Shown: piece after piece, positions 1,971-20,436 of the stretch
Layout of the letters: each line of letters begins with the position of its first letter
Numbering within the stretch: position 1 is the stretch's first letter
Source of the DNA: Thermoleophilia bacterium
GTDB taxonomy: Bacteria; Actinomycetota; Thermoleophilia; RBG-16-64-13
DNA length: 64,000 nucleotides
Assembly: GCA_026415615.1 (NCBI GenBank)
Contig: JAOAGT010000003.1
Location: 103,077-167,076 of the forward strand
Reading direction: 5' to 3'
Made by a program: the position numbers and the translations under genes
The notes under the pieces: model-generated
Database searches by the model: none
What the model was told of the DNA's origin: nothing
The model's input: the letters and a program-made list of their open reading frames with translations, nothing else

Positions 1971-3251
1971 CTATTCGACCAGCACCCACTTGCCGTTCTC
2001 AATCTTTACAATGATCATCTGGTCAGCCGTCAGGCCATCGTGGTCAGTCTCGGAATAATTGTAAATGCCATCTGGACCGACAAACCCTTTGGTAGAGTTA
2101 AGCGCCGCCTGAATTGCCGTGGCTTCTGTGCTTTTTGCTTTCTCTATGGCCGCCACTAACAAAGTGATGGCCTCAAACGCATACCCGGCAAACGTGTTTG
2201 GCATTTCGTTGTAGGTAGCCTTGTAAAGATCAATGAACTCTTGCGTTACCTTCTTTTGCTCCGGATTTGTAATTGAGTCGGGTACTAGCAGTCGCCCAGC
2301 TGGGAATACCACTCCCTCAACAGCGTCGCCCCCAAGTTCAATGAAGGTGCGGTTCGCAATGCCATGGCTACCCACGTAGGGAATCTTCATTCCAAGCTGC
2401 TTCATATTCTTGGCGGCCAAAGCCGGCCCCGGATTCGTCCCCCATACCACGATTACCTCCGGCCCGGCGGCCCGTATCTTGGTGAGCTGTGAAGTCAAGT
2501 CAGTGTCGTCGGTCTTGTAGGGTTCCACGGCGACAATCTCAAGTCCATAGCTACCCGCGGTCCGCTCGATCTCCTTGGCTCCTGAGGATCCAAAAGCATT
2601 TTCATCGTGAAGCACGGCAATCTTCTTGGCTCCAAGAGACTTCGATATATAGGTTAATGCCCTGGCCACAGCCATCGCATCTTTGTGCGGCGTCCGCCAA
2701 ATCCATTCCGTTGGCGGCGCATCGGTGATGTCGTTTGCCGCCGCCATGGCGATTTGAGGAACCTTCCTCTCGGCGGTGATCGGCTTGACCGCGAGTGTAG
2801 ACGCAGAACCGGTAGCGGCGATTATGGCCACTGCCTTCTTCTGGTCGAGCAACCGGTTGGCTGCCGTAACCGCCTCCTTTGCATCTGTCTTATCGTCCTC
2901 AACTATCACATCGAGCGGGCGGCCGAGCACGCCACCTTCCTGATTGATCTTGCTCTCCATCATTTCAAGTACGTTTCTTTCCTGGACTCCCAAGGCGGCA
3001 TTCGGACCAGTTGCGGAGACGATCGCACCGATGACCACGGGTTCGCCAGTCGGAGCTGCACCGCCCGAAGCACTGGTCGTAACCGAGGAGTTGCCCCCTT
3101 GAGCGTTCTGGGCCGACGAATCTTTCCCCCCGCAGCCCACGAGCGATAAGAGAAGGCTTGAGCCCAAAACTGCAATGCACAGCGACCAAGCCCAGCCATG
3201 GCGCCTTGGCATTTCCGATCTGCGCTGCTCAGCTTTCCTCACTTGCCTCAT
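1971..3251 (-). CDS. livJ: Branched-chain amino acid ABC transporter substrate-binding lipoprotein (LivJ/K-like, type I periplasmic binding fold)
   Basis: Signal peptide with a lipobox (LLLSLVGCGG) and a Ser/Gly-rich linker, followed by a Leu/Ile/Val-binding-protein-like domain (VVIGAIVSATGPNAALG...). A more likely start is the internal MPRRHGW at about 3212. Confidence 0.75.
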   Translation of the reverse strand: MRQVRKAEQRRSEMPRRHGWAWSLCIAVLGSSLLLSLVGCGGKDSSAQNAQGGNSSVTTSASGGAAPTGEPVVIGAIVSATGPNAALGVQERNVLEMMESKINQEGGVLGRPLDVIVEDDKTDAKEAVTAANRLLDQKKAVAIIAATGSASTLAVKPITAERKVPQIAMAAANDITDAPPTEWIWRTPHKDAMAVARALTYISKSLGAKKIAVLHDENAFGSSGAKEIERTAGSYGLEIVAVEPYKTDDTDLTSQLTKIRAAGPEVIVVWGTNPGPALAAKNMKQLGMKIPYVGSHGIANRTFIELGGDAVEGVVFPAGRLLVPDSITNPEQKKVTQEFIDLYKATYNEMPNTFAGYAFEAITLLVAAIEKAKSTEATAIQAALNSTKGFVGPDGIYNYSETDHDGLTADQMIIVKIENGKWVLVE

Positions 3252-4014
3252 CCTCTAACTCCTCCCCTAAGTAGGCTTTTATTACTTCCTCGTTTTCTTG
3301 GATCATGAAGGGCGGTCCTTCCGCAATCTTCCGCCCGTAATCCAACACCACCACTTCATCCGATAGATCCATGACAAAGCTCATGTCGTGTTCGACTAGG
3401 AGAACGGTGATCCCTTCGGCTCTAAGTCTTCTGACCACCTCAGCCAAGCGGGCAGTTTCGGCTTCGTTGAGGCCGGCCGCTGGTTCATCCAAGAGGAGAA
3501 GCTGCGGTTCTGTAGCCAAAGCCCGCGCAATCTCAAGCAGGTGTCGCTCACCCATCGCCAGATTGCCTGCTGGATCGTCCCCCCGGTGCTCAAGCCCAAC
3601 CCGCCGCAGTGCGTCTTCGGCAGCCTTCATAGTCTCACGTTCTTCACGGCGGTGAAGAGGGAGTGTAAGAAAAGCCGCTAGCAATCCGGCCTTGGTGCGC
3701 GAATACCTCCCTACGGCGACGTTTTCAAGCACAGTCATGTCTTCGAAAACCAGACTGTGTTGAAAAGTGCGGCCCAAACCCAAGCGACACATACGGTGTG
3801 GCGGATACCCAGTTACGTTCCTATCTGCAAAATACACTCTGCCGCTCGTGGGTAGCAGATATCCCGAAACAAGGTTAAAAAGGGTCGTCTTCCCAGCCCC
3901 GTTCGGCCCGATAAGCGCCTTAATCTGACCGCGATAAACCGCGAAAGTGACTTCGCGCAGAGCCTCAAGTCCACCAAACCGCTTTGTGACCTTGTCCACT
4001 CTAAGAAGCGCCAC
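3229..4014 (-). CDS. livG: Branched-chain amino acid ABC transporter ATP-binding protein (LivG type)
   Basis: Walker A GPNGAGKTT; LivG-like N-terminus LLRVDKVTKRFGGLEAL; ABC signature and Walker B LLLLDEPAAGL. Confidence 0.85.
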   Translation of the reverse strand: MALLRVDKVTKRFGGLEALREVTFAVYRGQIKALIGPNGAGKTTLFNLVSGYLLPTSGRVYFADRNVTGYPPHRMCRLGLGRTFQHSLVFEDMTVLENVAVGRYSRTKAGLLAAFLTLPLHRREERETMKAAEDALRRVGLEHRGDDPAGNLAMGERHLLEIARALATEPQLLLLDEPAAGLNEAETARLAEVVRRLRAEGITVLLVEHDMSFVMDLSDEVVVLDYGRKIAEGPPFMIQENEEVIKAYLGEELEDEASEES

Positions 4015-8816: not shown

Positions 8817-8896
8817 GGCTGTAGTTTTGAGCCCAGGGCTGTAGTTTCCAGCCCAAGGCTAGAGTTTCGATCCCAAGGCTAGAGTCTCTCTAGGCA
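8817..8896. repeat. Imperfect 20-nt tandem repeat x4 (GGCTGTAGTTTYSAGCCCAR-like), intergenic
   Basis: Units at 8817-8836, 8837-8856, 8857-8876 and 8877-8896. Identity between adjacent units falls from 17/20 to about 12/20. Units 2 and 4 each contain a perfect 6-bp inverted repeat (GGGCTG...CAGCCC; CTAGAG...CTCTAG). Confidence 0.6.
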
Positions 8897-9148
8897 CACG
8901 TCTCCGGCATTGCCTACTCTCACGACAAAGCGGCCGCCGCAAAGTCCACATTCAAAACTTGCGCCGTCTTGCAGAGAAAAATCTGCCTCCTGTCTGGGTG
9001 AGGAGCCTAGATGCACTACCACATGGCAGTGCGGGCAGGGAAAGTCAAAGTGTTGCTCTTGGTTCTGGAGAGCTCTTTTATCCCCAACGATTTCCCATAG
9101 CGGATCGTACTTCTTTTTGGCCACTGTACCTCCCGGGCATGTCCCCAT
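8879..9148 (-). CDS. Small hypothetical zinc-ribbon protein (CPHC...CGLC)
   Basis: 89-aa ORF in an otherwise empty 465-nt gap, divergent from lipB. Four Cys in a CxxC-N29-CxxC arrangement. No homology assignable by eye. Confidence 0.3.
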   Translation of the reverse strand: MGTCPGGTVAKKKYDPLWEIVGDKRALQNQEQHFDFPCPHCHVVVHLGSSPRQEADFSLQDGASFECGLCGGRFVVRVGNAGDVCLERL

Positions 9149-9230
9149 CCAACACGCGGTGACTTCGCAAGCGAAGCCCGCCAGTCAGGGTATTCTAACT
9201 CCCACAACAAACACGAACCAAGGAAACAAG

Positions 9231-9926
9231 ATGCTGCTGGCGAGGGCGACATCAATGCACTACCGCGTGTTCGATTTGGGCCTTGCCCCGTACTTACCTG
9301 TTCAAAAACTCCAACAAGGCTTTCGACAGGCCGTTACACAAGGCACGGTTCCGGGCGTCGTTCTCCTTTTAGAGCACCCTCCCACAGTCACTCTCGGCAA
9401 ACGAGCCGATCCGGCCGTGGACCTTCGCGACGCAGAAGAGCTGAGACGCCGCAAGGTGGCCGTGGTACGTTCGGAACGCGGAGGTCGCGCCACTGCACAT
9501 GCGCCCGGGCAGCTCGTTGTTTATCCCGTCGTGCCGATTCCTCGCCGAGATCTGCGAGCCTACGTATACGGGTTGGAGGAAATGGTCCGCCTGGTCCTCG
9601 AGAGACTCGGACTGCAAGCCCATAGGCGCCCGGGATTTCCTGGATTGTACGTACAAGAAAAGAAGATTGCTTCGGTGGGCCTGCGTTGCGAGAGATGGGT
9701 GGCAAGCCACGGCATTTCCCTAAACGTAAATGTGGAGCTTGACCTCTTTGACCTCATAGTGTCTTGCGGAGAGGCCGACCTCAGGCAGACAAGTCTTCAG
9801 GCGTTTACCGGAAACACCTACAGCATGGATGAGATCAAGACTTTATGCTGGAGTGAACTTCAAAGTGTGTTTGGCTGGAAACTTGACCCACCGGTCCGAA
9901 CAACTCTGCAAGAAGCGATGCCCTAA
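9231..9926 (+). CDS. lipB: Octanoyltransferase (lipoyl(octanoyl) transferase) LipB
   Basis: Motifs VVLLLEHPPTVTLG, RGGRATAHAPGQLVVYPV and the catalytic region EKKIASVGLR. ATG at 9231 is preceded by AAGGAAAC. The longer ORF-track start at 8910 has a non-protein-like N-terminus. Confidence 0.8.
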   Translation: MLLARATSMHYRVFDLGLAPYLPVQKLQQGFRQAVTQGTVPGVVLLLEHPPTVTLGKRADPAVDLRDAEELRRRKVAVVRSERGGRATAHAPGQLVVYPVVPIPRRDLRAYVYGLEEMVRLVLERLGLQAHRRPGFPGLYVQEKKIASVGLRCERWVASHGISLNVNVELDLFDLIVSCGEADLRQTSLQAFTGNTYSMDEIKTLCWSELQSVFGWKLDPPVRTTLQEAMP

Positions 9927-10965: not shown

Positions 10966-11568
10966 TTAACTGGGATTTTCTGCCTCAGGTTGGTTGGCGT
11001 CGGTATCCGTAGCCGCGCCCCTGTGGCCCCTGTTGGCTCTGCGGCTGCCGCGGACGATAAGCCTGATTCTGTCCGCCTCTGAGCCTCTGGGCCAGTGGAA
11101 GAACGTGGGGTTGCAGCAGCCAGAAGGAGCGTACAAAGACTCATAAGCCTGCACTACCGTAACCCGGCAATGAGGCAAAGGAGGTCGCCAGATCCGCAAA
11201 TATCCGTACGGATCACGCACACTCGAGGGCTCGACGCCATCTTTGAGAAAAACATCCAACACCAGCTCGGGTAGAAAAACCTTGTGCAGGCAGCCAAAGT
11301 ACGAAGTCTCGCCTTCCTGAAAGACATAGATACAACGACATCCAGAACGCAGACACTGCCAGGGTGATACCACCCTTTCGCAAATCACCTCGCACTCGCG
11401 GCATTCCAAGCGCAGTCGCTCACGCAGCCGCTGCGCGCGTGCACTCAACCATGTGGTGTCGTCCGCGTGTTTCATGCTTTTCAGTATACCCTGGATCCAC
11501 ACCTCCGTGCCCCAGTATGGACACACCTCACCCGCCGGTAGAACTTTCCCACCGCGAGCCCGGCACAA
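10966..11568 (-). CDS. Hypothetical Cys-rich protein (13 Cys; CRECEVICER...CLRSGCRC motif), function unknown
   Basis: It is the only long ORF filling the 570-nt space between rnz and the pilin-cluster genes. A more likely start is the internal ATG at 11475 (MKHADD...), which removes the overlap with the upstream gene. Confidence 0.35.
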   Translation of the reverse strand: MCRARGGKVLPAGEVCPYWGTEVWIQGILKSMKHADDTTWLSARAQRLRERLRLECRECEVICERVVSPWQCLRSGCRCIYVFQEGETSYFGCLHKVFLPELVLDVFLKDGVEPSSVRDPYGYLRIWRPPLPHCRVTVVQAYESLYAPSGCCNPTFFHWPRGSEADRIRLIVRGSRRANRGHRGAATDTDANQPEAENPS

Positions 11569-12664
11569 GTCTGGCCCGCCTCAGCGAGCAATCAGTGGCC
11601 CACCGCAAGACCGCAGGGCAAAAAACCACTGTTCCGCTTTCACCCACGTCAACCGTGCCCGTCGCCATGACGGCCCCACACACTGTTGTTCCGTCCAGCA
11701 GTATTGACCCCTCATCCACTACGACGACAGCCCGCACGAGCCCAAGACCCCGCGCGTCTAGATCAGCTCCGCCGGTCAGCACAACCAAGACAGGCTCCGA
11801 GTTGTTCCGCACATGCAGCGCCTTCTCGGGGAAAGACACGCGTCGCCCCGTGCGCGCTTGGATAAGAAACACCCCCTCTTCAGCAACCACCCCGACGCGG
11901 TCCCCTGTTTCAGAGAGAAATCCTGTGTCTTGAATCTCTGCCATCAACGACACTGCAGTGCGCCAGCCTCCATCTAATGACCATGGCTCTTCTAGAGGTA
12001 AGACCTGACAGTTCTCTGCTATTGGGGCCACAGTCTCAGGGCGAGTGAGGTAAGCAACCGCGGGCCGAGCAGGCCCTTTTTCCTCGTCTGCACTCGACGT
12101 GTCTAACTCGTCATCTGCACTCGAAGTGTCCAAATCACTTTGTAGCCACACCTGGCTTCGAGTGGGATCGGCCATGACCTCCGTCGCCACTACCGCAGCA
12201 AAGGGAAGGTCGAGCCCGTCTCGTCCTCGTTCCACCCACGCACTCGCAGCCAGAGCACAGATTTGGGGGTCGTGGCGAACCGTCGCTTCCAAGGCCCAAT
12301 TCTCGCAACCGGGAATCGCCTCAAGTGCGCCTTCGACCCGCCCCAAGCCCGAGAAACTCTCAGTCTCAACACGGCTCCAAGGAGTCGGCTGCCAGCTAAG
12401 TAGGGCGCTGTACCGAAGTAAGTCAAGCGCTTGATCTCTCGCCAGCATGAAGTCTCTCCCACGCCTCTCATCCGCTGCTGCCCTGTGTGCGCAGATAAGC
12501 ACCGTCGAAAGCACCTGAATAGAAACGGCTGTCATCAAGGAGGCCAACAGAACGAAAAGAAGAACGGACCCCTGCGCACCGAGAAGCAACGGGTGCCTGC
12601 TACCTCTGGGAATGTGCCCCTTCAGGGAAGCCACACTACCTCCCCACAGGAGCTTCTGTGGCAA
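11528..12664 (-). CDS. Hypothetical membrane-anchored protein with acidic 9-aa tandem repeat; possibly a GspK-like degenerate pseudopilin
   Basis: N-terminal hydrophobic helix (LLLGAQGSVLLFVLLASLMTAVSIQVL) but no Glu at +5. Contains the repeat LDTSSADDE / LDTSSADEE. It is the last gene of the minus-strand pilin operon. Confidence 0.4.
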   Translation of the reverse strand: MPQKLLWGGSVASLKGHIPRGSRHPLLLGAQGSVLLFVLLASLMTAVSIQVLSTVLICAHRAAADERRGRDFMLARDQALDLLRYSALLSWQPTPWSRVETESFSGLGRVEGALEAIPGCENWALEATVRHDPQICALAASAWVERGRDGLDLPFAAVVATEVMADPTRSQVWLQSDLDTSSADDELDTSSADEEKGPARPAVAYLTRPETVAPIAENCQVLPLEEPWSLDGGWRTAVSLMAEIQDTGFLSETGDRVGVVAEEGVFLIQARTGRRVSFPEKALHVRNNSEPVLVVLTGGADLDARGLGLVRAVVVVDEGSILLDGTTVCGAVMATGTVDVGESGTVVFCPAVLRWATDCSLRRARLVPGSRWESSTGG

Positions 12665-13253
12665 CCGACACGAGCGCGACTAGATCATTGTCTGTCATCC
12701 TCAGATGAAGTGTCACAGCTCTTATCAGGGACATAGCACTCTGAAGAACCTGCTCCCGCGTGGACCCATCCTCCAGGACATATGCGAGCCGAGATGGCTG
12801 GGCCACATCATGGAGCATTGTCTTGTTGTCACGGTAAAGGGAGTGAGCAAAAGTTTTCGGTCGGAAACTGGGACAAAGTCCCCAACGACGCATGAGACTC
12901 CCCGACGCAATCTCCCACTCAACAATGATGGGAGTCTCTGAATTTGCCTCGCGACGCAAAAATACGAGCTGGCTGGGACCCGCCTCCAAGATTGGGCCGG
13001 CAGTGGCAAAACGGCACCCGTGGGCTGTAGCCAGGCGGAGATCTCTTTCAAGCCGGGCAACGGCAACCCGCCCCTGGAGATAGCCGACCATAGCGTCGGA
13101 TTCAGCAGAGGCTCTCTTGGTTACCGCGAGAAACAGGAGTCCCGCAGCGCCAACCAGAACGACCGTAACAACTAGGCCGATCAAGAGCTCAATCAGTGTA
13201 AAACCGTTATTGCTCCTAAAAGTAGACATCGAGAGAACGCCCGATCTCCACAA
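12636..13253 (-). CDS. Prepilin-type N-terminal cleavage/methylation domain protein (minor pilin / pseudopilin)
   Basis: Class III signal MSTFRSNNG|FTLIELLIGLVVTVVLV with Glu at +5. A more likely start is ATG at 13229. Confidence 0.7.
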   Translation of the reverse strand: MWRSGVLSMSTFRSNNGFTLIELLIGLVVTVVLVGAAGLLFLAVTKRASAESDAMVGYLQGRVAVARLERDLRLATAHGCRFATAGPILEAGPSQLVFLRREANSETPIIVEWEIASGSLMRRWGLCPSFRPKTFAHSLYRDNKTMLHDVAQPSRLAYVLEDGSTREQVLQSAMSLIRAVTLHLRMTDNDLVALVSVATEAPVGR

Positions 13254-14055
13254 GCCATGACTGGCTCTGTCCTTCGAGTTCTACTGTGACCACTCCCTCC
13301 CCGGCGGGACTTATCGTCCGCAGCAATCCTTTGCACTCGTCGGCTACCGTGCAGGGCAAACCAGTGGTATGCAAACCAGCTGTGGACAAGAACGGGATGT
13401 GCACCACCGCGGCAGCCCAATCCGGTGACTGCCCAGCCGCGGGTTCCAGGTCGCCCCCAGAGGTCTCACTGCAACTTGCAAATGAAGCGCCCTGAGTTTC
13501 TCCGTCGGAGACTTCGCTAACAGTGATGCGCCACGGTGCCCCCCAAGACCCCGTCACCTTGTGGACCCGGAGAACCACCTCGTGTCCTGCACTAGCAATC
13601 TGGGGTAGTCCGCTTTTCCAGCATTCGGGCGGCAACGCGGCCTCGCCGTTGTTAACCAGAAACTCGCCCTTAAACCAGCCGTCAATCCACAGACCCACCT
13701 TCTTGTAGCAGCCGGAATCCGCGCCGCCCGCGGGCAAGTCCCAGTCGTCTGAAACCGCAACCTTGAGCTCGCCGCGTGCATTCCACGAAACTGACTGAAC
13801 TTGTTCTCCCCAACACCAAGCCTTCTTGCCGTTTGCTTCGGTAGACTCCTTCTCCGCAGAGTCTGTTGCAGTTGCGGGCTGCTGCTCGGTGCGAAGAGCG
13901 GCCGAAGCCGAAGCCAGCGAGGCCGCCATGCTCACGAGGAAAACTGCCATTAGAGACAACACGACTACCGCCGCCAGGACCTCAAAGAGGAGAAAGCCTT
14001 GTTCCATTTGGCAGCTGTGGCAGAGTGCGTCCAGGCTTGGCCGTTCTTTCGTCAT
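13216..14055 (-). CDS. Prepilin-type minor pilin / pseudopilin
   Basis: MEQG|FLLFEVLAAVVVLSLMAV (Glu at +5). A more likely start is at 14007. Confidence 0.6.
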   Translation of the reverse strand: MTKERPSLDALCHSCQMEQGFLLFEVLAAVVVLSLMAVFLVSMAASLASASAALRTEQQPATATDSAEKESTEANGKKAWCWGEQVQSVSWNARGELKVAVSDDWDLPAGGADSGCYKKVGLWIDGWFKGEFLVNNGEAALPPECWKSGLPQIASAGHEVVLRVHKVTGSWGAPWRITVSEVSDGETQGASFASCSETSGGDLEPAAGQSPDWAAAVVHIPFLSTAGLHTTGLPCTVADECKGLLRTISPAGEGVVTVELEGQSQSWLVEIGRSLDVYF

Positions 14056-14612
14056 TACTTATCTGCCTCGTAGTTTCGAACGGTGAATCCCGAGACTGGA
14101 CGAACCACCACTCTGTAGCCTGCATTGTGAGAGTGGAAATAGACTGACCCGCCCCCGGACGGCGCTGCAAACTCACCGCTAAAGCGGACTCTAACGCCGT
14201 CTGATGACTGCCAGGAAGCAGGGTTGGCTGAGATAGAACGGACCGTAGGAAACTCGCCGAGATCAGAGCGAGTGTCGCCACCGCTAGCAACCAGGCATAG
14301 GTCGGTAGGACCGGCAACTATGGTGCGAGAACCACCACGCCACATTACATCTATCTGGGCCCAAGCTGCCGCGGCCTGCCAGCACTGGGCAGCTCCTCGG
14401 GCGCTTTGCACCATGAAGCCAGCATGTGCAAATCTAACGGCGGCAACCACACAGATGGCCACAACGGCAAGCACCACAAGAAGCTCCACCGCACTGAACC
14501 CGTACGCAGGCACGATGGCGCCACTACTGTCAAACGACCTTTTCATGCTCGATAGAGTAAAGCCGGAGGGTTGAGTTGGTGAGACAACCTTAGTTGGAGA
14601 ATGGCGGAACAA
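14055..14612 (-). CDS. Prepilin-type minor pilin / pseudopilin
   Basis: MKRSFDSSGAIVPAYG|FSAVELLVVLAVVAI. The start codon of the ORF-track call at 14612 is TTG; a more likely ATG start is at 14546. Confidence 0.7.
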   Translation of the reverse strand: MFRHSPTKVVSPTQPSGFTLSSMKRSFDSSGAIVPAYGFSAVELLVVLAVVAICVVAAVRFAHAGFMVQSARGAAQCWQAAAAWAQIDVMWRGGSRTIVAGPTDLCLVASGGDTRSDLGEFPTVRSISANPASWQSSDGVRVRFSGEFAAPSGGGSVYFHSHNAGYRVVVRPVSGFTVRNYEADK

Positions 14613-14711
14613 GACGAATTCAGATCACCCAGCAGGCCGCCGAGGTAGTGCGGTTACCGCTTCCGTCTCCCGCGGCTCTAGAGGCGTGCACCCAGTCGGG
14701 CGAAGATCTAA

Positions 14712-15239
14712 TTACCAGCCGAGTTCGGCCTCTCCGTCAACCACTTTCACCTTGACATACCCGGTTTGCCTGAGGTCGACGGTGTTCACCTGGATGCCAA
14801 ACAGGTTTCCGGTAGCGCTGCGGGTAGCGATGTCCAACACGGTCTTGGACTCGGGATAGAACGCGACTTGGGATTGGGCCGCCTCCGCGGTCAGGTCTTC
14901 ACTTATTCGAGGGGGAGCAGTCGAGACCAGGTCGGAGTCGCTCTCTAGAAAGCTTACGCTCGGCTCTATCTTATTGAGCATGTCGGCCGTGATCTCGGCA
15001 TAGGACCCCGTCTCCACCAAAGCACTTTGCACGACAGTAAGAGCATTGCGCACGAGTGAGTAGGCAGCTGTGTCGGCTGCGCGCTCTCGCTGCCCCGCAT
15101 ACAGGGGAATGGCTATTACAACCAAGATCGCGATCACGATGATTACTACTAGCAGCTCGACGAGGGTGAAACCTGCTTGGGGCGCAAGTGCATGAGTGAA
15201 CCAGACTCTGGTCGGAGGAAAGTCTTTTTTGGCCGCCAT
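14712..15239 (-). CDS. Type IV pilin (major-pilin-like, PilA/ComGC class), paralog 1
   Basis: ...APQAG|FTLVELLVVIIVIAILVVIAIPLYAGQRERAADTAAYSLVRNALT. No Cys in the mature protein. An AGGAGAGG RBS precedes the start. Confidence 0.8.
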   Translation of the reverse strand: MAAKKDFPPTRVWFTHALAPQAGFTLVELLVVIIVIAILVVIAIPLYAGQRERAADTAAYSLVRNALTVVQSALVETGSYAEITADMLNKIEPSVSFLESDSDLVSTAPPRISEDLTAEAAQSQVAFYPESKTVLDIATRSATGNLFGIQVNTVDLRQTGYVKVKVVDGEAELGW

Positions 15240-15287
15240 GTGGTCGCCTCTCCTGCGTTTTCAGAGCGTCCGGTCTCACCACGCGCT

Positions 15288-15941
15288 TCAGCCAGCGGGT
15301 GTCTTCTTTAGAGTGATGCCCTGGGCGGCAGCCTGCTCGAGCAGCTGCTGTGCTTCATCAGCCCGCCCTTGGGAAGAGAGCAGTCGGTACAAGATCTCGT
15401 AAGAGCGAGCATAGCCAGGTTCACTCTCTATCGCCTTCCGCAGGACTGCTTCTGCCCTAGCTTCGTCGCCGCAAGCGATCAGCGCTTGAGCCCAGAAGGT
15501 GAGGTTCTTCGCGCTAGGCTCAAGCGACGCCGCCTCACCAAGCACTCTTGCGGCATCGGCCGGCCTTCCCTGATGATTAAGGTAGTTGAAGCCGAGCTCC
15601 ACGCGCACTTGGGCGTTGTCAGGAACAAGCGCAACCACCCGCTCTTGCATGACAAGCGCTTCGTCGTAGCGTCCTAGAAGTAGAAGACACACCGAGGCCT
15701 GTTCCAGCGCCTCCGTGTCCTCCGGATGTTCGCGCAGGATCTCCTTGTAGAGTGACAGGGCGTGTTCAATATGGCCCTGTTCTTGAAGCGCGCGGGCTTG
15801 TCCTGCGCGGTCGCTGCAGCCGGAGAAGGCAAGAATCACGGAAGCAAGCGCCACAGCCAGAACCAGGCCGAGGGCTGCCAGCGCTGCGGAACGAGCCCGC
15901 ATCCCAATGCCTAGATAATTTGTTGCTCTTCTGCCCTGCAT
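15288..15941 (-). CDS. TPR-repeat lipoprotein (PilF/Tgl-like position inside pilin operon)
   Basis: Signal peptide ending LAFSGC (putative lipobox), then at least four TPR-like helical repeats (ALSLYKEILREHPEDTEALEQ..., ARSYEILYRLLSSQGRADEAQQLLEQA). Confidence 0.65.
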   Translation of the reverse strand: MQGRRATNYLGIGMRARSAALAALGLVLAVALASVILAFSGCSDRAGQARALQEQGHIEHALSLYKEILREHPEDTEALEQASVCLLLLGRYDEALVMQERVVALVPDNAQVRVELGFNYLNHQGRPADAARVLGEAASLEPSAKNLTFWAQALIACGDEARAEAVLRKAIESEPGYARSYEILYRLLSSQGRADEAQQLLEQAAAQGITLKKTPAG

Positions 15942-15965
15942 GTCCGTGAACAGCCTACAGAGTAA

Positions 15966-15995
15966 GAGCGGGCGGCCCTTTGTGGTCGCCCGCTC
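15966..15995 (-). terminator. GC-rich hairpin (9-bp perfect stem GAGCGGGCG/CGCCCGCTC, 12-nt loop) about 90 nt downstream of pilin paralog 2
   Basis: Seen directly in the sequence. The flank is modestly U-rich on the minus strand (UUACUCUGU). It may act as an attenuator between the major pilin gene and downstream genes. Confidence 0.4.
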
Positions 15996-16086
15996 GTTAC
16001 TAGTCCGGTACCATGATCACCTTCGACTCAGCTACATGGCCACGAGCCTCTAGGCACACGGTACGTGCACATCAGCCGAACCTTTA

Positions 16087-16548
16087 TCACCAGGCCGCTT
16101 CCTCACCGTCGATGTAGAAGGTGTTGCCACCGTTGGCACCTTTATTTACCAAGACACCGAAGGTCTTGCCTGACTCAGACTTTGAACCGACCTGGTATGT
16201 GTCAGCCGTGCCGTCATAGTTCACTTGGTTCTGCGAGGCAAGTGCGGTCGGAGCTGTAGCGGCATTTGCTAGTGGCACGAACGTTATTGACGGCTCAATA
16301 GCTTTGAGTACGTCCGCGGTCATCTGGGTGGGGACAAAGGTTCTTAGGTCAACGTACGCCGATTCAATCGCGGTCATGGCGTTACGAACCAGAGACTTTG
16401 CCGCGGCATCCTGTGCTTTCTGAAGCTGCCCCAGGAACGTCGGGATGGCGATAGCCGCCAGGATGGCGATGATAATGATCACCACCAAGAGTTCGATGAG
16501 GGTAAAGCCCTTCTCGCCCCTCATCCTTTTACGGATCAGACTTAACAT
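16087..16548 (-). CDS. Type IV pilin (major-pilin-like), paralog 2
   Basis: MLSLIRKRMRGEKG|FTLIELLVVIIIIAILAAIAIPTFLGQLQKAQDAAAKSLVRNAMT. A strong RBS AAGGAGGAGG lies 6 nt upstream of ATG 16548. The N-terminal 60 aa are near-identical to paralog 1 and the C-terminal domain is divergent. Confidence 0.8.
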   Translation of the reverse strand: MLSLIRKRMRGEKGFTLIELLVVIIIIAILAAIAIPTFLGQLQKAQDAAAKSLVRNAMTAIESAYVDLRTFVPTQMTADVLKAIEPSITFVPLANAATAPTALASQNQVNYDGTADTYQVGSKSESGKTFGVLVNKGANGGNTFYIDGEEAAW

Positions 16549-16618: not shown

Positions 16619-16645
16619 TTGATCGGCATTTTGTGCTTGGACTTT
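16619..16645 (-). promoter_or_regulatory. Candidate sigma-28 (SigD/FliA)-type promoter, CTAAAG-N15-GCCGATCA, upstream of pilin paralog 2
   Basis: The reverse complement of 16619-16646 reads CTAAAG-(15 nt)-GCCGATCA. Against the consensus TAAA-N15-GCCGATAT this is 4/4 at -35 and 6/8 at -10. It lies about 70 nt upstream of the start codon. Confidence 0.25.
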
Positions 16646-16811
16646 AGCGGTCTTTTGGAGGCACACAACTGAGACTTTTGGCCGACTGCGGCCGATGACG
16701 CAGCGCTCGCCTAGCGCTTGCCTGCGGGGATAACGCCCATTCCTGACCGCCTGCTGCTACCCAGTCCTAACCCCCTGCCGCCGAATTGCCGTGGCTGGCT
16801 GGCGCTGAGTG

Positions 16812-16857
16812 GGTAAAACGACAATTAGGTAAAGCGACAGGTATATTTTGTCGATAT
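16812..16857 (+). promoter_or_regulatory. Direct repeat GGTAAARCGACA x2 (16812-16823, 16828-16839) overlapping a candidate sigma-28-type promoter TAAAG-N15-GTCGATAT (16830-16857)
   Basis: -35 TAAA at 16830-16833 and -10 GTCGATAT at 16850-16857 (7/8 to GCCGATAT). It lies about 85-130 nt upstream of the PilV-like gene. An AT-rich TATATT/TATATA stretch is adjacent. Confidence 0.25.
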
Positions 16858-16940: not shown

Positions 16941-18512
16941 ATGAAAAGCAAGATGCTGACACAAGCAACTAGGTACAGGGAACATATGCCGCGGCACAAA
17001 GCAAAGCACCGCGGAAGAGCGGGCCTGCGTGGCTTCACGCTCATTGAAGTGCTTATTGCCTCGATGCTCCTCCTGATTGTTATGGCTGGAATAGTCCCGT
17101 TCTTCGTGGGCGGATTGGCGCAGGCGTCTACTGTCCGCTACAAGAGCCTTGCCACCAATATCGCTCGCGAGCGTATGGAACAAATCCGCCAGCTTGATTA
17201 TCGCGAAATAACAGAGAATCCTGCAGAAGGTACTACGCTAAGCGCGCGTTTTGGCACTACCGCGGAGCGTCGCGGCATAAAGTTCAATATCTCGTATAAG
17301 GTAGAGTCCTCCACATACGACACTGGGTTGCTCAAGAAAGTTACGGTCACAGTTTCCTGGACTGCTCCGCCGCGGGTATCCCCAGCGTCGATAACCACCC
17401 TTATCCACCAACAGTTCCTGGGGCCGCGAGGTGCTTACCTTGAGCTGTCGCCAACCCAGTCAGATCCGTTGGGTACTCCGTTTCCACTGATAGCCGGGTC
17501 CAGCACGCGCATTCGCTACCACATAGCTGAAGCAGATTGGGGGCTAGTATTCCGAGACGTGACCAAACCCAGCACAACTGCGAGAGATGTATTTGCGCGC
17601 TTCTTCTTTGTGGGCAGCGATGGTAGGACTATCTTTCTAGGGGACCCCGATGACGAGAACCGCATCGACACCGCTTATTTGCGCTACTCTACCAGCGGAA
17701 GCCAACTAACCGACGTCTGGTTTGAGTACTCGTTCGACACACGGCTTATCCCAGACGGATATTGGGAGCTCCGGGCAGTCGCCTACAACGAATACGAGCA
17801 ACCGGGCAACGTCTGGCGCCTTAGAGTAAGAATCGAGAACGGCGCCCCGGCCGCTCCCACTCAATTCACGGCAGTTGCTCAGCCGGACAATCAAAGCGTA
17901 GTCCTATACTGGCTGGGAGGCCCAGAGTCCGACCGCGACCATTACGTGCTGGAGCGCTCGGTTTGGAATAGCCAAGCCCAACAGTGGACTTCCTGGCAGC
18001 CGGTGGCTCCAAACATCGCCCCTGACACTGTCACATACACCGACCAGGGAAGCGTCGCCTTAAAGGTTCATCCTTGGGGTAGTCAAGAGACAACAAACTG
18101 GTACCTGTATCGCATCTACGCCGTTGACAGGCAGCCTGGCAACATCGGACCCGCTGCCGCGCTAACCCAGCCAGTGGTAATACCTCCCATGACTACCACC
18201 ACGACCACGCAGACAACTACGACAGTCTCCACGACCAGTACCACGACCATCTCCACTACTACGACGACTCTCGCCACTTACTCGGTCAAGGTGCAGAACA
18301 ACGCAAAATCGCACTACCGGGTGGATGTGCGAAACGCTTCGAATGCCCTGGTCTACACTGGCACGGTGAAGAAAGGCCAGACCTTGACCATCTCCGGGCT
18401 ACCGGCAGGGCAGTACAAAATAGACGCCACACCAATCAGTGGCGGATCTATAGTCTCGGCCTCCTTCTCTTTGCCCGCACAGGCCGACCAGATTGTTCTT
18501 ACTTTGCTCTAG
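16941..18512 (+). CDS. PilV-like prepilin-type protein with FN3-like domain, Thr-rich linker and C-terminal beta-sandwich domain (putative pilus-associated adhesin)
   Basis: Class III signal ...RAGLRG|FTLIEVLIASMLLLIVMAGIV. An FN3-type pattern (PAAPTQFTAVAQPDNQSVVLYWLGGPESDRDHYVLERS...W...YTDQG). A T-rich linker (TTTTTQTTTTVSTTSTTTISTTTTT). A roughly 90-aa C-terminal domain. A more likely start is ATG 16986 (MPRHKAKHRG...). Confidence 0.7.
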   Translation: MKSKMLTQATRYREHMPRHKAKHRGRAGLRGFTLIEVLIASMLLLIVMAGIVPFFVGGLAQASTVRYKSLATNIARERMEQIRQLDYREITENPAEGTTLSARFGTTAERRGIKFNISYKVESSTYDTGLLKKVTVTVSWTAPPRVSPASITTLIHQQFLGPRGAYLELSPTQSDPLGTPFPLIAGSSTRIRYHIAEADWGLVFRDVTKPSTTARDVFARFFFVGSDGRTIFLGDPDDENRIDTAYLRYSTSGSQLTDVWFEYSFDTRLIPDGYWELRAVAYNEYEQPGNVWRLRVRIENGAPAAPTQFTAVAQPDNQSVVLYWLGGPESDRDHYVLERSVWNSQAQQWTSWQPVAPNIAPDTVTYTDQGSVALKVHPWGSQETTNWYLYRIYAVDRQPGNIGPAAALTQPVVIPPMTTTTTTQTTTTVSTTSTTTISTTTTTLATYSVKVQNNAKSHYRVDVRNASNALVYTGTVKKGQTLTISGLPAGQYKIDATPISGGSIVSASFSLPAQADQIVLTLL

Positions 18513-19197
18513 GAAAGAGTGGATGGTGGCAAGCGAGATGGCAACTCGGTCGACACGATTTCTAACAACTAGACGCGTTCGACCCGGGAGGGATGCCGCA
18601 GGCTTCACTCTTGTGGAAGCCTTGGTTACGGCCGTGCTGATTGCTGTCGTTTTGCTTGCAATTTTCACCATCTGGTTTGGGCTGCAGCGCACCTACGCTT
18701 TTACAGAAGAGGACATGAAGGCGCAGCAGGAGGCGAGAAATGCTCTCTCGGAGATGGTCGAGCTCATTCGCACAGCTCGACGGCCCAACCCAGCACCTTC
18801 AGAGAATCTGGACTTGGTCATTGTTACAGCAGACAGCAACTCGCTGGTGTTGTGGTCCGACGTGGATCGTGACCCGCAGCATGATCTCGAGTTAGTGCGC
18901 TTTCGCGTGGATTTCCAGTCGCGCACGCTCTACCGCGACGTGAGCCAGACCGGTGATATCACTTTTTCTTCGGGCACATCAGTTCGACTGGTGAGTAGTT
19001 GGGTGACCAACGACGAAACTCTGCCGCTTTTTACGTACATTGACTCGAAGGGGATCACATTGCCTACCCCGGTGCCGGATCCTGTAGCCATTCGGCAAGT
19101 AGTGATTGACCTGCGTATAGACGTGGAGGTCGGCAAATCGCCGATTGCACACGAGCTTCGCTCCACAGTACAACCCCGAAATCTGCGCCAGTACTAG
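18493..19197 (+). CDS. PilW-like prepilin-type minor pilin
   Basis: ...RDAAG|FTLVEALVTAVLIAVVLLAIFTIW with Glu at +5. It overlaps the end of the upstream gene by 20 nt, suggesting translational coupling. Confidence 0.65.
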   Translation: MFLLCSRKEWMVASEMATRSTRFLTTRRVRPGRDAAGFTLVEALVTAVLIAVVLLAIFTIWFGLQRTYAFTEEDMKAQQEARNALSEMVELIRTARRPNPAPSENLDLVIVTADSNSLVLWSDVDRDPQHDLELVRFRVDFQSRTLYRDVSQTGDITFSSGTSVRLVSSWVTNDETLPLFTYIDSKGITLPTPVPDPVAIRQVVIDLRIDVEVGKSPIAHELRSTVQPRNLRQY

Positions 19198-19218: not shown

Positions 19219-20436
19219 ATGACTGCCAGGAAGACCGTCCAAGCAGTGACCTGTATTCGGGAGAGATTAGCTAGAGAGTCCGGAGTGGTCCTCATAGTTG
19301 TGATGGCCTTTGTGGCGGTGTTCGCAGCTACGGGCGCCGGACTCTACTGGCTGGTGTCTTCGCAAACTAACGCCACTGAGCTTGAACGCACAGATGTCAA
19401 GGCTTTCAATGTCGCAGAAGCAGGCATAGATGCTGGCATGCTTGCCCTTAAGCTGAACTGGCCTGACGCTCCCGATAAGGTAGCCGCCGTTGACAATGAC
19501 ATTCTAAAGACTGTCATTCAGCAAAACAGCCCTGGCTTGTGGGACCCAAAACGGTCTAACCCGAGCGAGTTTATCCAGGTGGAGATATACGACAATGTCG
19601 ACGCCTCGGGCAATACCACAAGCGTTGCGAATCCAGACCCGTCCACACGCGTTTATTGGGATTCGAACAAGGACGGCCTGATGTTTGTCGACTCTACCGC
19701 TAACGTCGACGATGACCGGCACCGCATTCTGATCCTGGCCCAGCGACAGTACTGGGATCTTACCTTCCCCGTGGGTCTAGCCCTATGGTCAGGAGTTGTG
19801 GACAGCAACGGACAAGGCTTGTACGTAACTGTAGAGGATCCAAACCCTGCCCCATATGTTCCATATGCTTTTTACGATGTACACGACGCTCAAGGCAAGA
19901 AGATAAGTGCAGGGTACGCGGTTGCCCCAGCTCCTTCAGCATCTTCATTCAATGAGGTATTCCCGGAGTCACTGCGAGCCGCGCTGGAAGCCATCGCCCG
20001 AGAGCAGGGCACCTATTTCACTAGCGACACTCAGGCAAGTGCCTTCCTTGCCTCGGGCCAAGCTGGTGGAAAGGTCGTGTACATCAAGTCAAACTCAGCT
20101 GTAACCATAAGCGGCGACAAGCGGGTGGGAAGCAAAGATTCACCCGTGGTGGTAATAATTGACACGCCCGACAACTCAGAAAATGTCTGGGACTTTCGAG
20201 GAACAGCTGATTTCTACGGCGTCCTCGTTACGATCGGAAACAGCACCCTACGAGGAACTTCCGGCATACACGGAGCCCTCTACTGCTCGGGTACGTTGCT
20301 CAACAAGGGCACTGGCTCTAGCGGCGAGATTAATTACAACCAGACCTGCATCCAAAACATAAACAGGCAGTACACCATCAGCGTAAACATCGTTCCCAAC
20401 ACCTGGGAGGAGTATACGCTGCCCCGCTCGCAGTAG
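19219..20436 (+). CDS. PilX N-terminal-domain protein (putative pilus tip / minor pilin)
   Basis: The N-terminus ESGVVLIVVMAFVAVFAATGAGLYWL...KAFNVAEAGIDAGMLAL matches the PilX_N pattern (hydrophobic helix followed by AF..AEAG). 405 aa. Confidence 0.6.
   Translation: MTARKTVQAVTCIRERLARESGVVLIVVMAFVAVFAATGAGLYWLVSSQTNATELERTDVKAFNVAEAGIDAGMLALKLNWPDAPDKVAAVDNDILKTVIQQNSPGLWDPKRSNPSEFIQVEIYDNVDASGNTTSVANPDPSTRVYWDSNKDGLMFVDSTANVDDDRHRILILAQRQYWDLTFPVGLALWSGVVDSNGQGLYVTVEDPNPAPYVPYAFYDVHDAQGKKISAGYAVAPAPSASSFNEVFPESLRAALEAIAREQGTYFTSDTQASAFLASGQAGGKVVYIKSNSAVTISGDKRVGSKDSPVVVIIDTPDNSENVWDFRGTADFYGVLVTIGNSTLRGTSGIHGALYCSGTLLNKGTGSSGEINYNQTCIQNINRQYTISVNIVPNTWEEYTLPRSQ

Follow-up and report, generated by a model that had tools for sequence, protein, structure and literature searches.

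Gene and locus

We analysed a 64,000-nt stretch of contig JAOAGT010000003.1 from a Thermoleophilia metagenome-assembled genome (MAG; GenBank assembly GCA_026415615.1), hereafter called the window, in which a plus-strand open reading frame (ORF) encodes an unusually large type IV prepilin. This large pilin is the product of a real and conserved gene. It joins a pilin module to an immunoglobulin-like (Ig-like) domain, a divergent fibronectin type III (FN3) domain, a Thr-rich linker and a C-terminal β-sandwich domain (CTD), opens a conserved three-gene cassette, and is preceded by a WhiG/FliA-type promoter-like motif (Table 1). Residue numbers follow the 523-aa numbering unless the 508-aa numbering is stated, and domain structures are AlphaFold2 predictions, not solved structures.

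Table 1. Positions in the window of the large pilin, its modules, the partner genes and the promoter-like motifs.
Feature	Position	Strand	Basis or remark
Large modular minor pilin ORF	16941..18512	+	523 aa counting upstream Met; 508 aa from M16; mature ~492 aa
Class III (prepilin) leader	16941..17033	+	Ends at Gly(-1), aa 31; motif read from sequence, PF07963 and TIGR02532 above cutoffs
Pilin module	17034..17423	+	AlphaFold2: α1 helix aa 34-83 and 4-stranded antiparallel sheet aa 107-156
D2, Ig-like (E-set) β-sandwich	17424..17843	+	~140 aa; AlphaFold2
D3, divergent FN3 domain	17844..18191	+	7 strands; AlphaFold2, Foldseek, profiles, transitive homology
Thr-rich disordered linker	18192..18275	+	aa 418-445; 71% Thr, 11% Ser, 0% Pro; pLDDT <50
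CTD, terminal β-sandwich	18276..18509	+	7 strands, ~78 aa; AlphaFold2, aa 447-522, block pLDDT 90-96
Second cassette gene, prepilin (G/FTLVE)	18493..19197	+	234 aa; J-class by position and size
Third cassette gene, PilX/GspK-class	19219..20436	+	405 aa; GspK match, PilX_N in family, orthology
WhiG/FliA-type promoter-like motif TAAA-N16-GTCGATAT	16830..16857	+	2 mismatches; 111 bp upstream of ATG 16941
WhiG/FliA-type promoter-like motif TAAA-N15-GCCGATCA	16620..16646	-	1 mismatch; faces divergent major-pilin gene
Divergent pilin operon	11528..16548	-	Two major-pilin-like genes (153, 175 aa), a tetratricopeptide repeat protein between them, four (pseudo)pilin-like genes

An earlier reading, made from the letters and translated ORFs only (the sequence-only reading), had placed a 523-aa ORF here, and its exact coordinates and strand hold: the frame is uninterrupted, with zero internal stops, and the strand opposite carries stops throughout. 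NCBI lists the same protein from Met16 on (MCX8032906.1, Thermoleophilia MAG) under the annotation 'prepilin-type N-terminal cleavage/methylation domain-containing protein', and because this record begins there, M16 (nt 16986) is the probable start codon. A word-indexed search for homologs of the same architecture, one of the checks the earlier reading had proposed, was productive: it returned 144 homologs, about 120 of them near full length (~470-550 aa) with 41-85% identity, and those from named organisms came from Thermoleophilia or other Actinobacteria MAGs. An exhaustive search yielded 831 cluster representatives with E<=1e-3, 35 of which had E<=1e-30. All modules are kept, and in register, in an alignment of 54 sequences, and the AlphaFold2 model built on the family alignment has a mean predicted local distance difference test score (pLDDT) of 87.7. 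In the searches made, the family appears restricted to uncultured Actinomycetota MAGs (Thermoleophilia, Gaiellales), and our literature search found no paper on it.

To the idea that the long ORF is an artefact, either a pair of genes run together by a frameshift in sequencing or assembly, as the earlier reading had itself cautioned, or a chance ORF in GC-rich DNA, we give next to no weight: certain MAG homologs do look frameshifted in or near the Thr tract (e.g., L017, L007 and L010), but the ~120 near-full-length homologs are independent, come from many assemblies and share the same continuous architecture, aligned modules and length, NCBI annotates the identical protein, and the AlphaFold2 model is confident over every module boundary but the linker. 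Among the related loci, the large-pilin copies in L017 (5902-7527), L007, L010, L025 and L027-L029 seem frameshifted or truncated, and in L017 a tail rich in Pro and Arg is read in place of the Thr tract. Such copies probably reflect faulty assembly of a low-complexity stretch, not true pseudogenes.

Domain architecture of the large pilin

The prepilin motif RG/FTLIEVL (slash, cleavage site) lies at aa 30-37, within the full stretch RG/FTLIEVLIASMLLLIVMAGIVPFF, and shows the features of type IV prepilins: Gly(-1), Phe+1, Glu+5 and a hydrophobic α1N helix. The prepilin N-terminus recognized in the sequence-only reading was confirmed by PF07963 (24.2 bits against a cutoff of 21.2) and TIGR02532 (20.7 against 16.3); on the whole protein, Pfam and NCBIfam gave the prepilin motif and no fn3 match. 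The G, T, L and E of the motif are near-invariant in the 54-sequence alignment, and Pro22 of the mature protein, within α1, is invariant in the family. The AlphaFold2 models show the 'lollipop' fold of a pilin, with a helix at residues 19-68 and four strands at 92-141 (508-aa numbering; block pLDDT 80-94), and a separate model of the fragment comprising the pilin module and D2 has a pLDDT of 87.0. Foldseek with this fragment model listed no pilins among its top 50 matches, and the corresponding profile matched PDB sequences in α1 only.

What had been described as a roughly 250-aa globular region is not a single unit: the pilin module (aa 32-161) is followed by an Ig-like β-sandwich (D2, aa 162-301), modelled with eight strands at about aa 164-298. 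Profile searches found neither a Pfam family nor a PDB sequence relative for D2, and Foldseek on the pilin and D2 fragment gave marginal Ig-like matches only, such as NPC2/ML (E 6e-4, target-normalised TM score 0.64), with glycoside-hydrolase accessory domains, RbmA and S-layer domains among the other marginal matches. Conservation among the extra modules is highest in D2, where 27 of 140 columns reach at least 90%; its conserved motifs are HQQFLGPRG, DPLGTPF, AEADW and PDGYWELRAVAYNEYxQPGN.

The next module, D3, is a ~100-aa sandwich with seven strands at aa 307-414 (292-399 in the 508-aa numbering) and a block pLDDT mostly above 90. The FN3 pattern noted in the sequence-only reading is a case in which fold and family model part ways. 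The Pfam fn3 model (PF00041; gathering threshold 25 bits) does not match the window protein even at E<=1, and it matches only one of 28 D3 segments of the family (E 0.03). The best Foldseek matches of the whole model, in contrast, were tandem FN3 arrays at E 6.5e-10 to ~1e-7, titin (8bxr, E 6.5e-10) first, followed by contactins (CNTN3), PTPδ, CD45, LAR and fibronectin. A profile check had been proposed for the C-terminal half of the protein, and for D3 the top five PDB matches were all FN3 domains with the PxxP...W start aligned, at E values of 0.06-0.6, none individually significant; the whole-family profile against PDB sequences pointed in the same FN3 direction, again with individually non-significant matches. 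A transitive link comes from the distant homolog P0199, whose segment aligned with D3 by BLASTP scores 26.3 bits with Pfam fn3, against the threshold of 25. The FN3 hallmarks, namely the N-terminal Pro (P2), the strand-B Trp (W23) and the strand-F Tyr residues (Y87, Y89), are invariant in the family. Fold, profile matches, transitive homology and invariant hallmarks thus support D3 as a divergent FN3 domain, although Pfam fn3 is blind to the window copy. Outside the generic FN3 signature, D3 has family-specific invariant motifs of charged and aromatic residues, GG-ERDR-x-YVLER and DPWG, in an extended E-F loop; these could mark a binding or interface site.

The Thr-rich linker proposed earlier was likewise recovered, with 20 Thr among the 26 residues of the tract at aa 418-443, predicted disorder, and a composition kept in 53 of 54 relatives (46-74% Thr over 18-45 aa), the sequence itself being little conserved. 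Its Pro content ranges from 0 to 16% across the family. In some relatives the linker position holds something else: a PASTA domain in P0124 (1.4e-11), P0116, L020 (5989-7746) and L023 (1372-3345), a Pfam-significant second FN3 in P0192 (28.3 bits), and a ~170-aa insert between two Thr tracts in P0025. The relatives with a second FN3 (P0192 and P0199) belong to a distant tier of ~575-600 aa. Because PASTA, a second FN3 or an insert replaces or interrupts the Thr tract, we consider the element between FN3 and CTD an exchangeable spacer. The CTD is always kept although the spacer ahead of it varies, as a design of stalk plus distal module predicts. A slippage-prone repeat in the Thr tract was considered and rejected, the Thr codons being mixed and the tandem-repeat scores weak (41-52).

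The CTD sits at the extreme C-terminus of all intact homologs, and AlphaFold2 gives confident β-sandwiches for both regions in which the sequence-only reading had anticipated them, the FN3 region and this terminal module. Its motifs are an 'L-P-x-G-x-Y' hairpin and a C-terminal SFSLPxQAGxxVLTI. CarboxypepD_reg (PF13620) matches 25 of 47 family CTDs at E<=0.1 (best E 1.8e-5), with the window CTD at 15.7 bits and E 0.019, short of the gathering threshold of 32.3. Por_Secre_tail (PF18962) matches 21 of 47 weakly (best E 2.8e-6), with precomputed matches in two homologs, and further weak family matches were to DUF3244, Big_3_5 and FlgD_ig; the window copy is below every cutoff. The type IX secretion system (T9SS), which recognizes a ~80-aa C-terminal domain, is a system of Bacteroidota and related diderms. 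Given that a T9SS is not expected in an actinobacterial host, we read the PF18962 matches as shared fold and not shared function. In the profile check against PDB the CTD weakly matched 9uvr, a putative surface protein (1.4e-3), and 8glk_D, a chain of endonuclease I (4e-3), as well as a chain of SdrD (10ps_A) and a surface-adherence protein that binds collagen (8bdw_A). The CTD is a generic small β-sandwich that weakly resembles the PF13620 or carbohydrate-binding-like fold class, short of membership. A profile search for the CTD in other protein contexts, of limited sensitivity, retrieved fragments of the same family only, and we saw no evidence of a general sorting or anchoring domain in these sequences. 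A sortase LPXTG signal in 'SLPAQAD' was rejected on sequence and model: the C-terminus (...SFSLPAQADQIVLTLL) has no LPXTG, just 6-7 hydrophobic residues and no basic tail, and these residues sit in CTD β-strands of the AlphaFold2 model.

Three-gene cassette and genomic context

Locus counts refer to 27 distinct related loci with downstream DNA. In all 27, the large-pilin gene is followed by a gene for a ~230-aa prepilin and then by one for a ~410-aa PilX/GspK-like protein, an order that parallels pilV-pilW-pilX and gspI-J-K. The contig of the distant homolog P0199 carries the V-W-X cassette too, between unrelated flanks, and at locus L001 the three proteins are, in order, 51, 59 and 53% identical to those of the window. 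The longest ORF of the second gene, from a TTG start, overlaps the end of the large-pilin gene, including its stop codon, by 20 nt (18493-18512); this is a hint of translational coupling, and the true start may be a downstream ATG at ~nt 18523 or 18538.

The third cassette protein has a hydrophobic prepilin-like N-terminus (…G/VVLIV…) without Glu5 and an extremely conserved C-terminus (…SVNIVPNTWEEYT). It matches NCBIfam GspK at E 1.3e-5, and PilX_N is matched by 6 of 14 members of its family. The K-class subunit at the very tip is classically recognized by a missing Glu5, as in GspK, and the third protein fits a K-class tip subunit supplying its own terminal strand. Profiles of both downstream proteins against PDB returned nothing useful. 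The locus therefore has the co-encoding expected of an I-J-K set, three minor pilins with a K-class member lacking Glu5, and given the gene order together with the GspK/PilX_N and PilV-type signals, we read the cassette as an I-J-K-type core set in which the I member is enlarged.

On the minus strand, the two major-pilin-like genes of the divergent operon are paralogs (45% identical, E 3e-20), and its four further (pseudo)pilin-like genes encode proteins of 185, 279, 205 and 378 aa. In 23 of the 27 related loci the cassette stands back-to-back with at least these two major-pilin-like genes. Paralogy between the plus-strand cassette and the minus-strand minor pilins was rejected (best pair E 0.018). 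The minus-strand minor pilins are Cys-rich, with 8 Cys in the 279-aa protein (13216-14055) and 7 in the 378-aa protein (11528-12664), against zero in the 523-aa modular pilin; the two sets may therefore differ in their dependence on disulfide bonds. The rest of the window is housekeeping, including recA, ftsK, pnp, infB, nusA, proS, ispG and dxr. At L001, a family-2 glycosyltransferase gene (8826-9737) lies directly upstream of the cassette and a sortase gene (2558-3658) 6 kb off; both are conserved neither in the window nor in the other loci, and we claim no link.

Promoter motifs

Type IV pilus (T4P) genes of Rubrobacter have a WhiG-type promoter consensus, -35 TAAA and -10 GCCGATAA (PMC8325347), against which we scored the motifs of the locus. 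Both motifs in Table 1 lie, each correctly oriented, in the 437-bp divergent intergenic region, and TAAA-N15-GCCGATCA is the sole one-mismatch match in the 64-kb window, among 13 matches at <=2 mismatches. Of the 27 related loci, 21 have a plus-strand match <=600 bp ahead of the large-pilin gene (four perfect, spacer 16 in most), where chance would account for ~2 loci at the overall rate of 68 matches in 337 kb; the minus-strand motif is present in 13 of 27. These motifs suggest that the WhiG control of T4P genes known from Rubrobacter may extend to Thermoleophilia, a sister class.

Proposed role and alternatives

Published work shows that a filament has room for modular pilins at its tip alone and that such pilins can act in adhesion (Raynaud et al. 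2021, PMC8179133), and PilI-J-K trimers license assembly and cap the fibre (PMC13533445). Given these published properties, we somewhat favour the reading that the large pilin is an I-class (PilV/GspI/ComGE-like) modular minor pilin of a tip-initiation complex, displaying a stalk and a tethered end module. With a pilin motif followed by Ig-like, FN3 and β-sandwich modules, the protein falls within the modular pilin definition of Raynaud et al. (2021), and that survey counts FN3 (IPR003961) and PF13620-type folds among the 15 modules most often grafted onto pilins (PMC8179133). The gene, its modules, the conserved cassette and the promoter motif were observed directly, whereas we infer tip location, complex formation, adhesion, glycosylation and a ligand, with location and function taken from such published systems. 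In the proposed sequence of events, prepilin peptidase would cut after Gly31 and the α1 helix would anchor the protein in the membrane. Together with the J-like prepilin and the PilX/GspK-like subunit lacking Glu5, both presumably co-transcribed with it, the large pilin would form the initiation complex from which the pilus starts to grow and which is finally carried at the tip. The C-terminal extension would then project from the tip, with D2 and the FN3 domain as a rather stiff stalk, a Thr-rich, possibly O-glycosylated segment as a flexible tether, and the terminal β-sandwich as the distal contact element. As in other modular pilins, extension and retraction of the pilus would bring this end module up to a surface or polymer ligand and pull it back.

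In favour of this reading, the PilV model is the commonest NCBIfam match and hits 21 of 23 family members at E<=0.01 (best E 9.9e-10). Several findings weigh against it. The label 'PilV-like' given by the sequence-only reading holds at the level of the class but not for PilV as such, given that the PilV equivalog TIGR02523 scores 20.7 bits on the full protein and 23.1 on the pilin and D2 fragment against a cutoff of 52.2, with the match confined to model positions 2-57, the α1 helix. GspI (equivalog TIGR01707) also falls short, at 21.8-23.1 bits against 44.35. Because both equivalog cutoffs failed, we use the name I-class-like and not PilV. The middle cassette gene has generic prepilin matches and no specific J-class signal, so that its J identity comes from position, and no pilus motor, platform or peptidase genes are present in the 64-kb window. 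The CTD shows no significant similarity to a characterized lectin or adhesin domain and no nameable binding site, and no other folded module is so poorly conserved (5 of 78 columns at 90% or more); the strongest conserved surfaces are those of D2 and D3, which possibly form the functional core instead of the CTD. A fall in conservation from base to tip is, however, as expected for an exposed distal element.

The linker adds a further point on the same side. Known actinobacterial protein O-mannosyltransferase (GT39) substrates are rich in Pro and Thr, e.g., Celf_3184 of Cellulomonas fimi (PMC12757957). Linkers of the Celf_3184 type resemble the present one as disordered, Thr-dominated connections between extracellular modules of an actinobacterial exported protein, but they consist of Pro-Thr repeats, whereas the window linker, unlike these O-mannosylated linkers, has no Pro. 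O-glycosylation would be plausible for an exported Thr-rich linker of an actinobacterium, yet it is speculation.

The strongest alternative, which we nevertheless regard as rather unlikely, is that the extension is a structural or assembly part without an external ligand, one that stabilizes or licenses the tip-initiation complex, perhaps through contacts with the J-like and K-like partners, or that aids the nascent pilus in crossing the thick monoderm wall. The ranking of conservation, with D2 and D3 strongest and the CTD weakest, fits this view, as do the constant company of the three cassette proteins and the published licensing of tip complexes by β-strands of partner proteins (PMC13533445). 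A further point for it is the extreme C-terminal SFSLPxQAGxxVLTI, relatively well conserved for the CTD. Against it, in the AlphaFold2 model the last strand is integral to the CTD sandwich (pLDDT 90-96), and the K-like protein's own conserved C-terminus fits licensing supplied in cis, as in GspK. Moreover, an assembly element acting within the molecule would be oddly placed behind a 28-aa disordered tether or, in relatives, an entire spacer domain, and interchangeable spacers better suit a reach function.

Less probable again is a second alternative, in which the cassette primes another type IV filament, such as a Com-like competence pilus or a secretion pseudopilus, and the extension binds DNA or a secreted substrate. 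ComGE matches 20 of 23 family members, nearly as often as PilV, GspI matches 13 of 23, and there are weak matches to GspK and other pseudopilin models; all of these, however, are below cutoff and limited to α1. Com pili are common in monoderms, to which the host belongs, and the second, non-paralogous minor-pilin set of the locus makes two filament types or two tips conceivable. Against this stand the lack of com or type II secretion machinery genes in the window and of any module like a known DNA-binding pilin module, as well as the position of the cassette back-to-back with two major-pilin-like genes that share its WhiG-type promoter class, the class that controls T4P in Rubrobacter.

A more ambitious form of the modular tip-pilin reading, which we consider quite doubtful, would have the job of a separate PilC/PilY1 tip adhesin moved onto the I-class pilin. 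The Ig-FN3 pair would then act as a new ligand-sensing or partner-docking unit, marked by the invariant ERDR, DPWG and PDGYW, and the CTD would swing on its tether to capture an environmental polymer or to dock onto the PilX-like subunit, gating initiation, with the whole cassette under WhiG control. If true, this would be a previously undescribed, self-contained 'adhesin-in-pilin' tip cassette controlled by WhiG.

Modular pilins, including those bearing FN3 and PF13620 modules, are already known (PMC8179133), and since the design is established, our understanding of pili is unchanged. What is added here is a well-defined large-pilin family. With it the known modular pilins gain a clearly delimited multi-module layout, one part of which is an Ig-like domain that Pfam lacks. 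Thermoleophilia and Gaiellales are abundant, almost wholly uncultured soil and sediment Actinobacteria, and their type IV pili are essentially unstudied. The family thus offers a concrete, conserved candidate for how such cells may touch their surroundings, with a tip subunit, a stalk, a tether and a distal module.

Comparison with known systems

The closest published parallels to a tip-displayed modular pilin are PilB, with a von Willebrand factor A (vWA) module, and PilC, with a lectin module, of Streptococcus sanguinis (PMC8179133). They share with the large pilin a class III signal, a pilin module, C-terminal grafted modules, a monoderm host and predicted display at the tip. PilB and PilC carry one module on a short loop, whereas the large pilin has three extra folded modules and a long Thr tether; it also differs in having a D2 without database family, in lacking a vWA or lectin signature, and in being encoded by the first gene of an I-J-K-like cassette. 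CofB of enterotoxigenic Escherichia coli and TcpB of Vibrio cholerae, both type IVb, likewise combine a pilin, a flexible linker, β-rich domains and an end β-sandwich, and are tip-located initiators (as summarised in PMC8179133). CofB and TcpB form homotrimers in type IVb systems without I-J-K partners, whereas the large pilin has a Thr tract as its linker and Ig-like and FN3 domains in between. Neither was among the Foldseek top 50 of the present models, and no sequence or fold match to them was found.

Compared with PilV, GspI and ComGE, the large pilin has the same α1 signature, a similarly small four-stranded pilin head, and the first place in a three-gene order that ends in a K-class protein without Glu5. 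Canonical I-class subunits, however, are ~100-140 aa long without extra domains, and the large pilin carries ~360 extra residues. No PilC/PilY1-type protein was found among the neighbours scanned with Pfam and NCBIfam. The PilC/PilY1 proteins and the minor-pilin/PilY1 sets of Myxococcus xanthus (PMC7541494, PMC13533445) resemble the system proposed here in having a large, variable adhesive or sensing part that the core minor-pilin complex presents at the tip, and, in M. xanthus, in encoding several minor-pilin sets together. PilY1, however, is exported by Sec, is not a pilin and has a β-propeller at its C-terminus, whereas here the extra modules are fused to the pilin itself.

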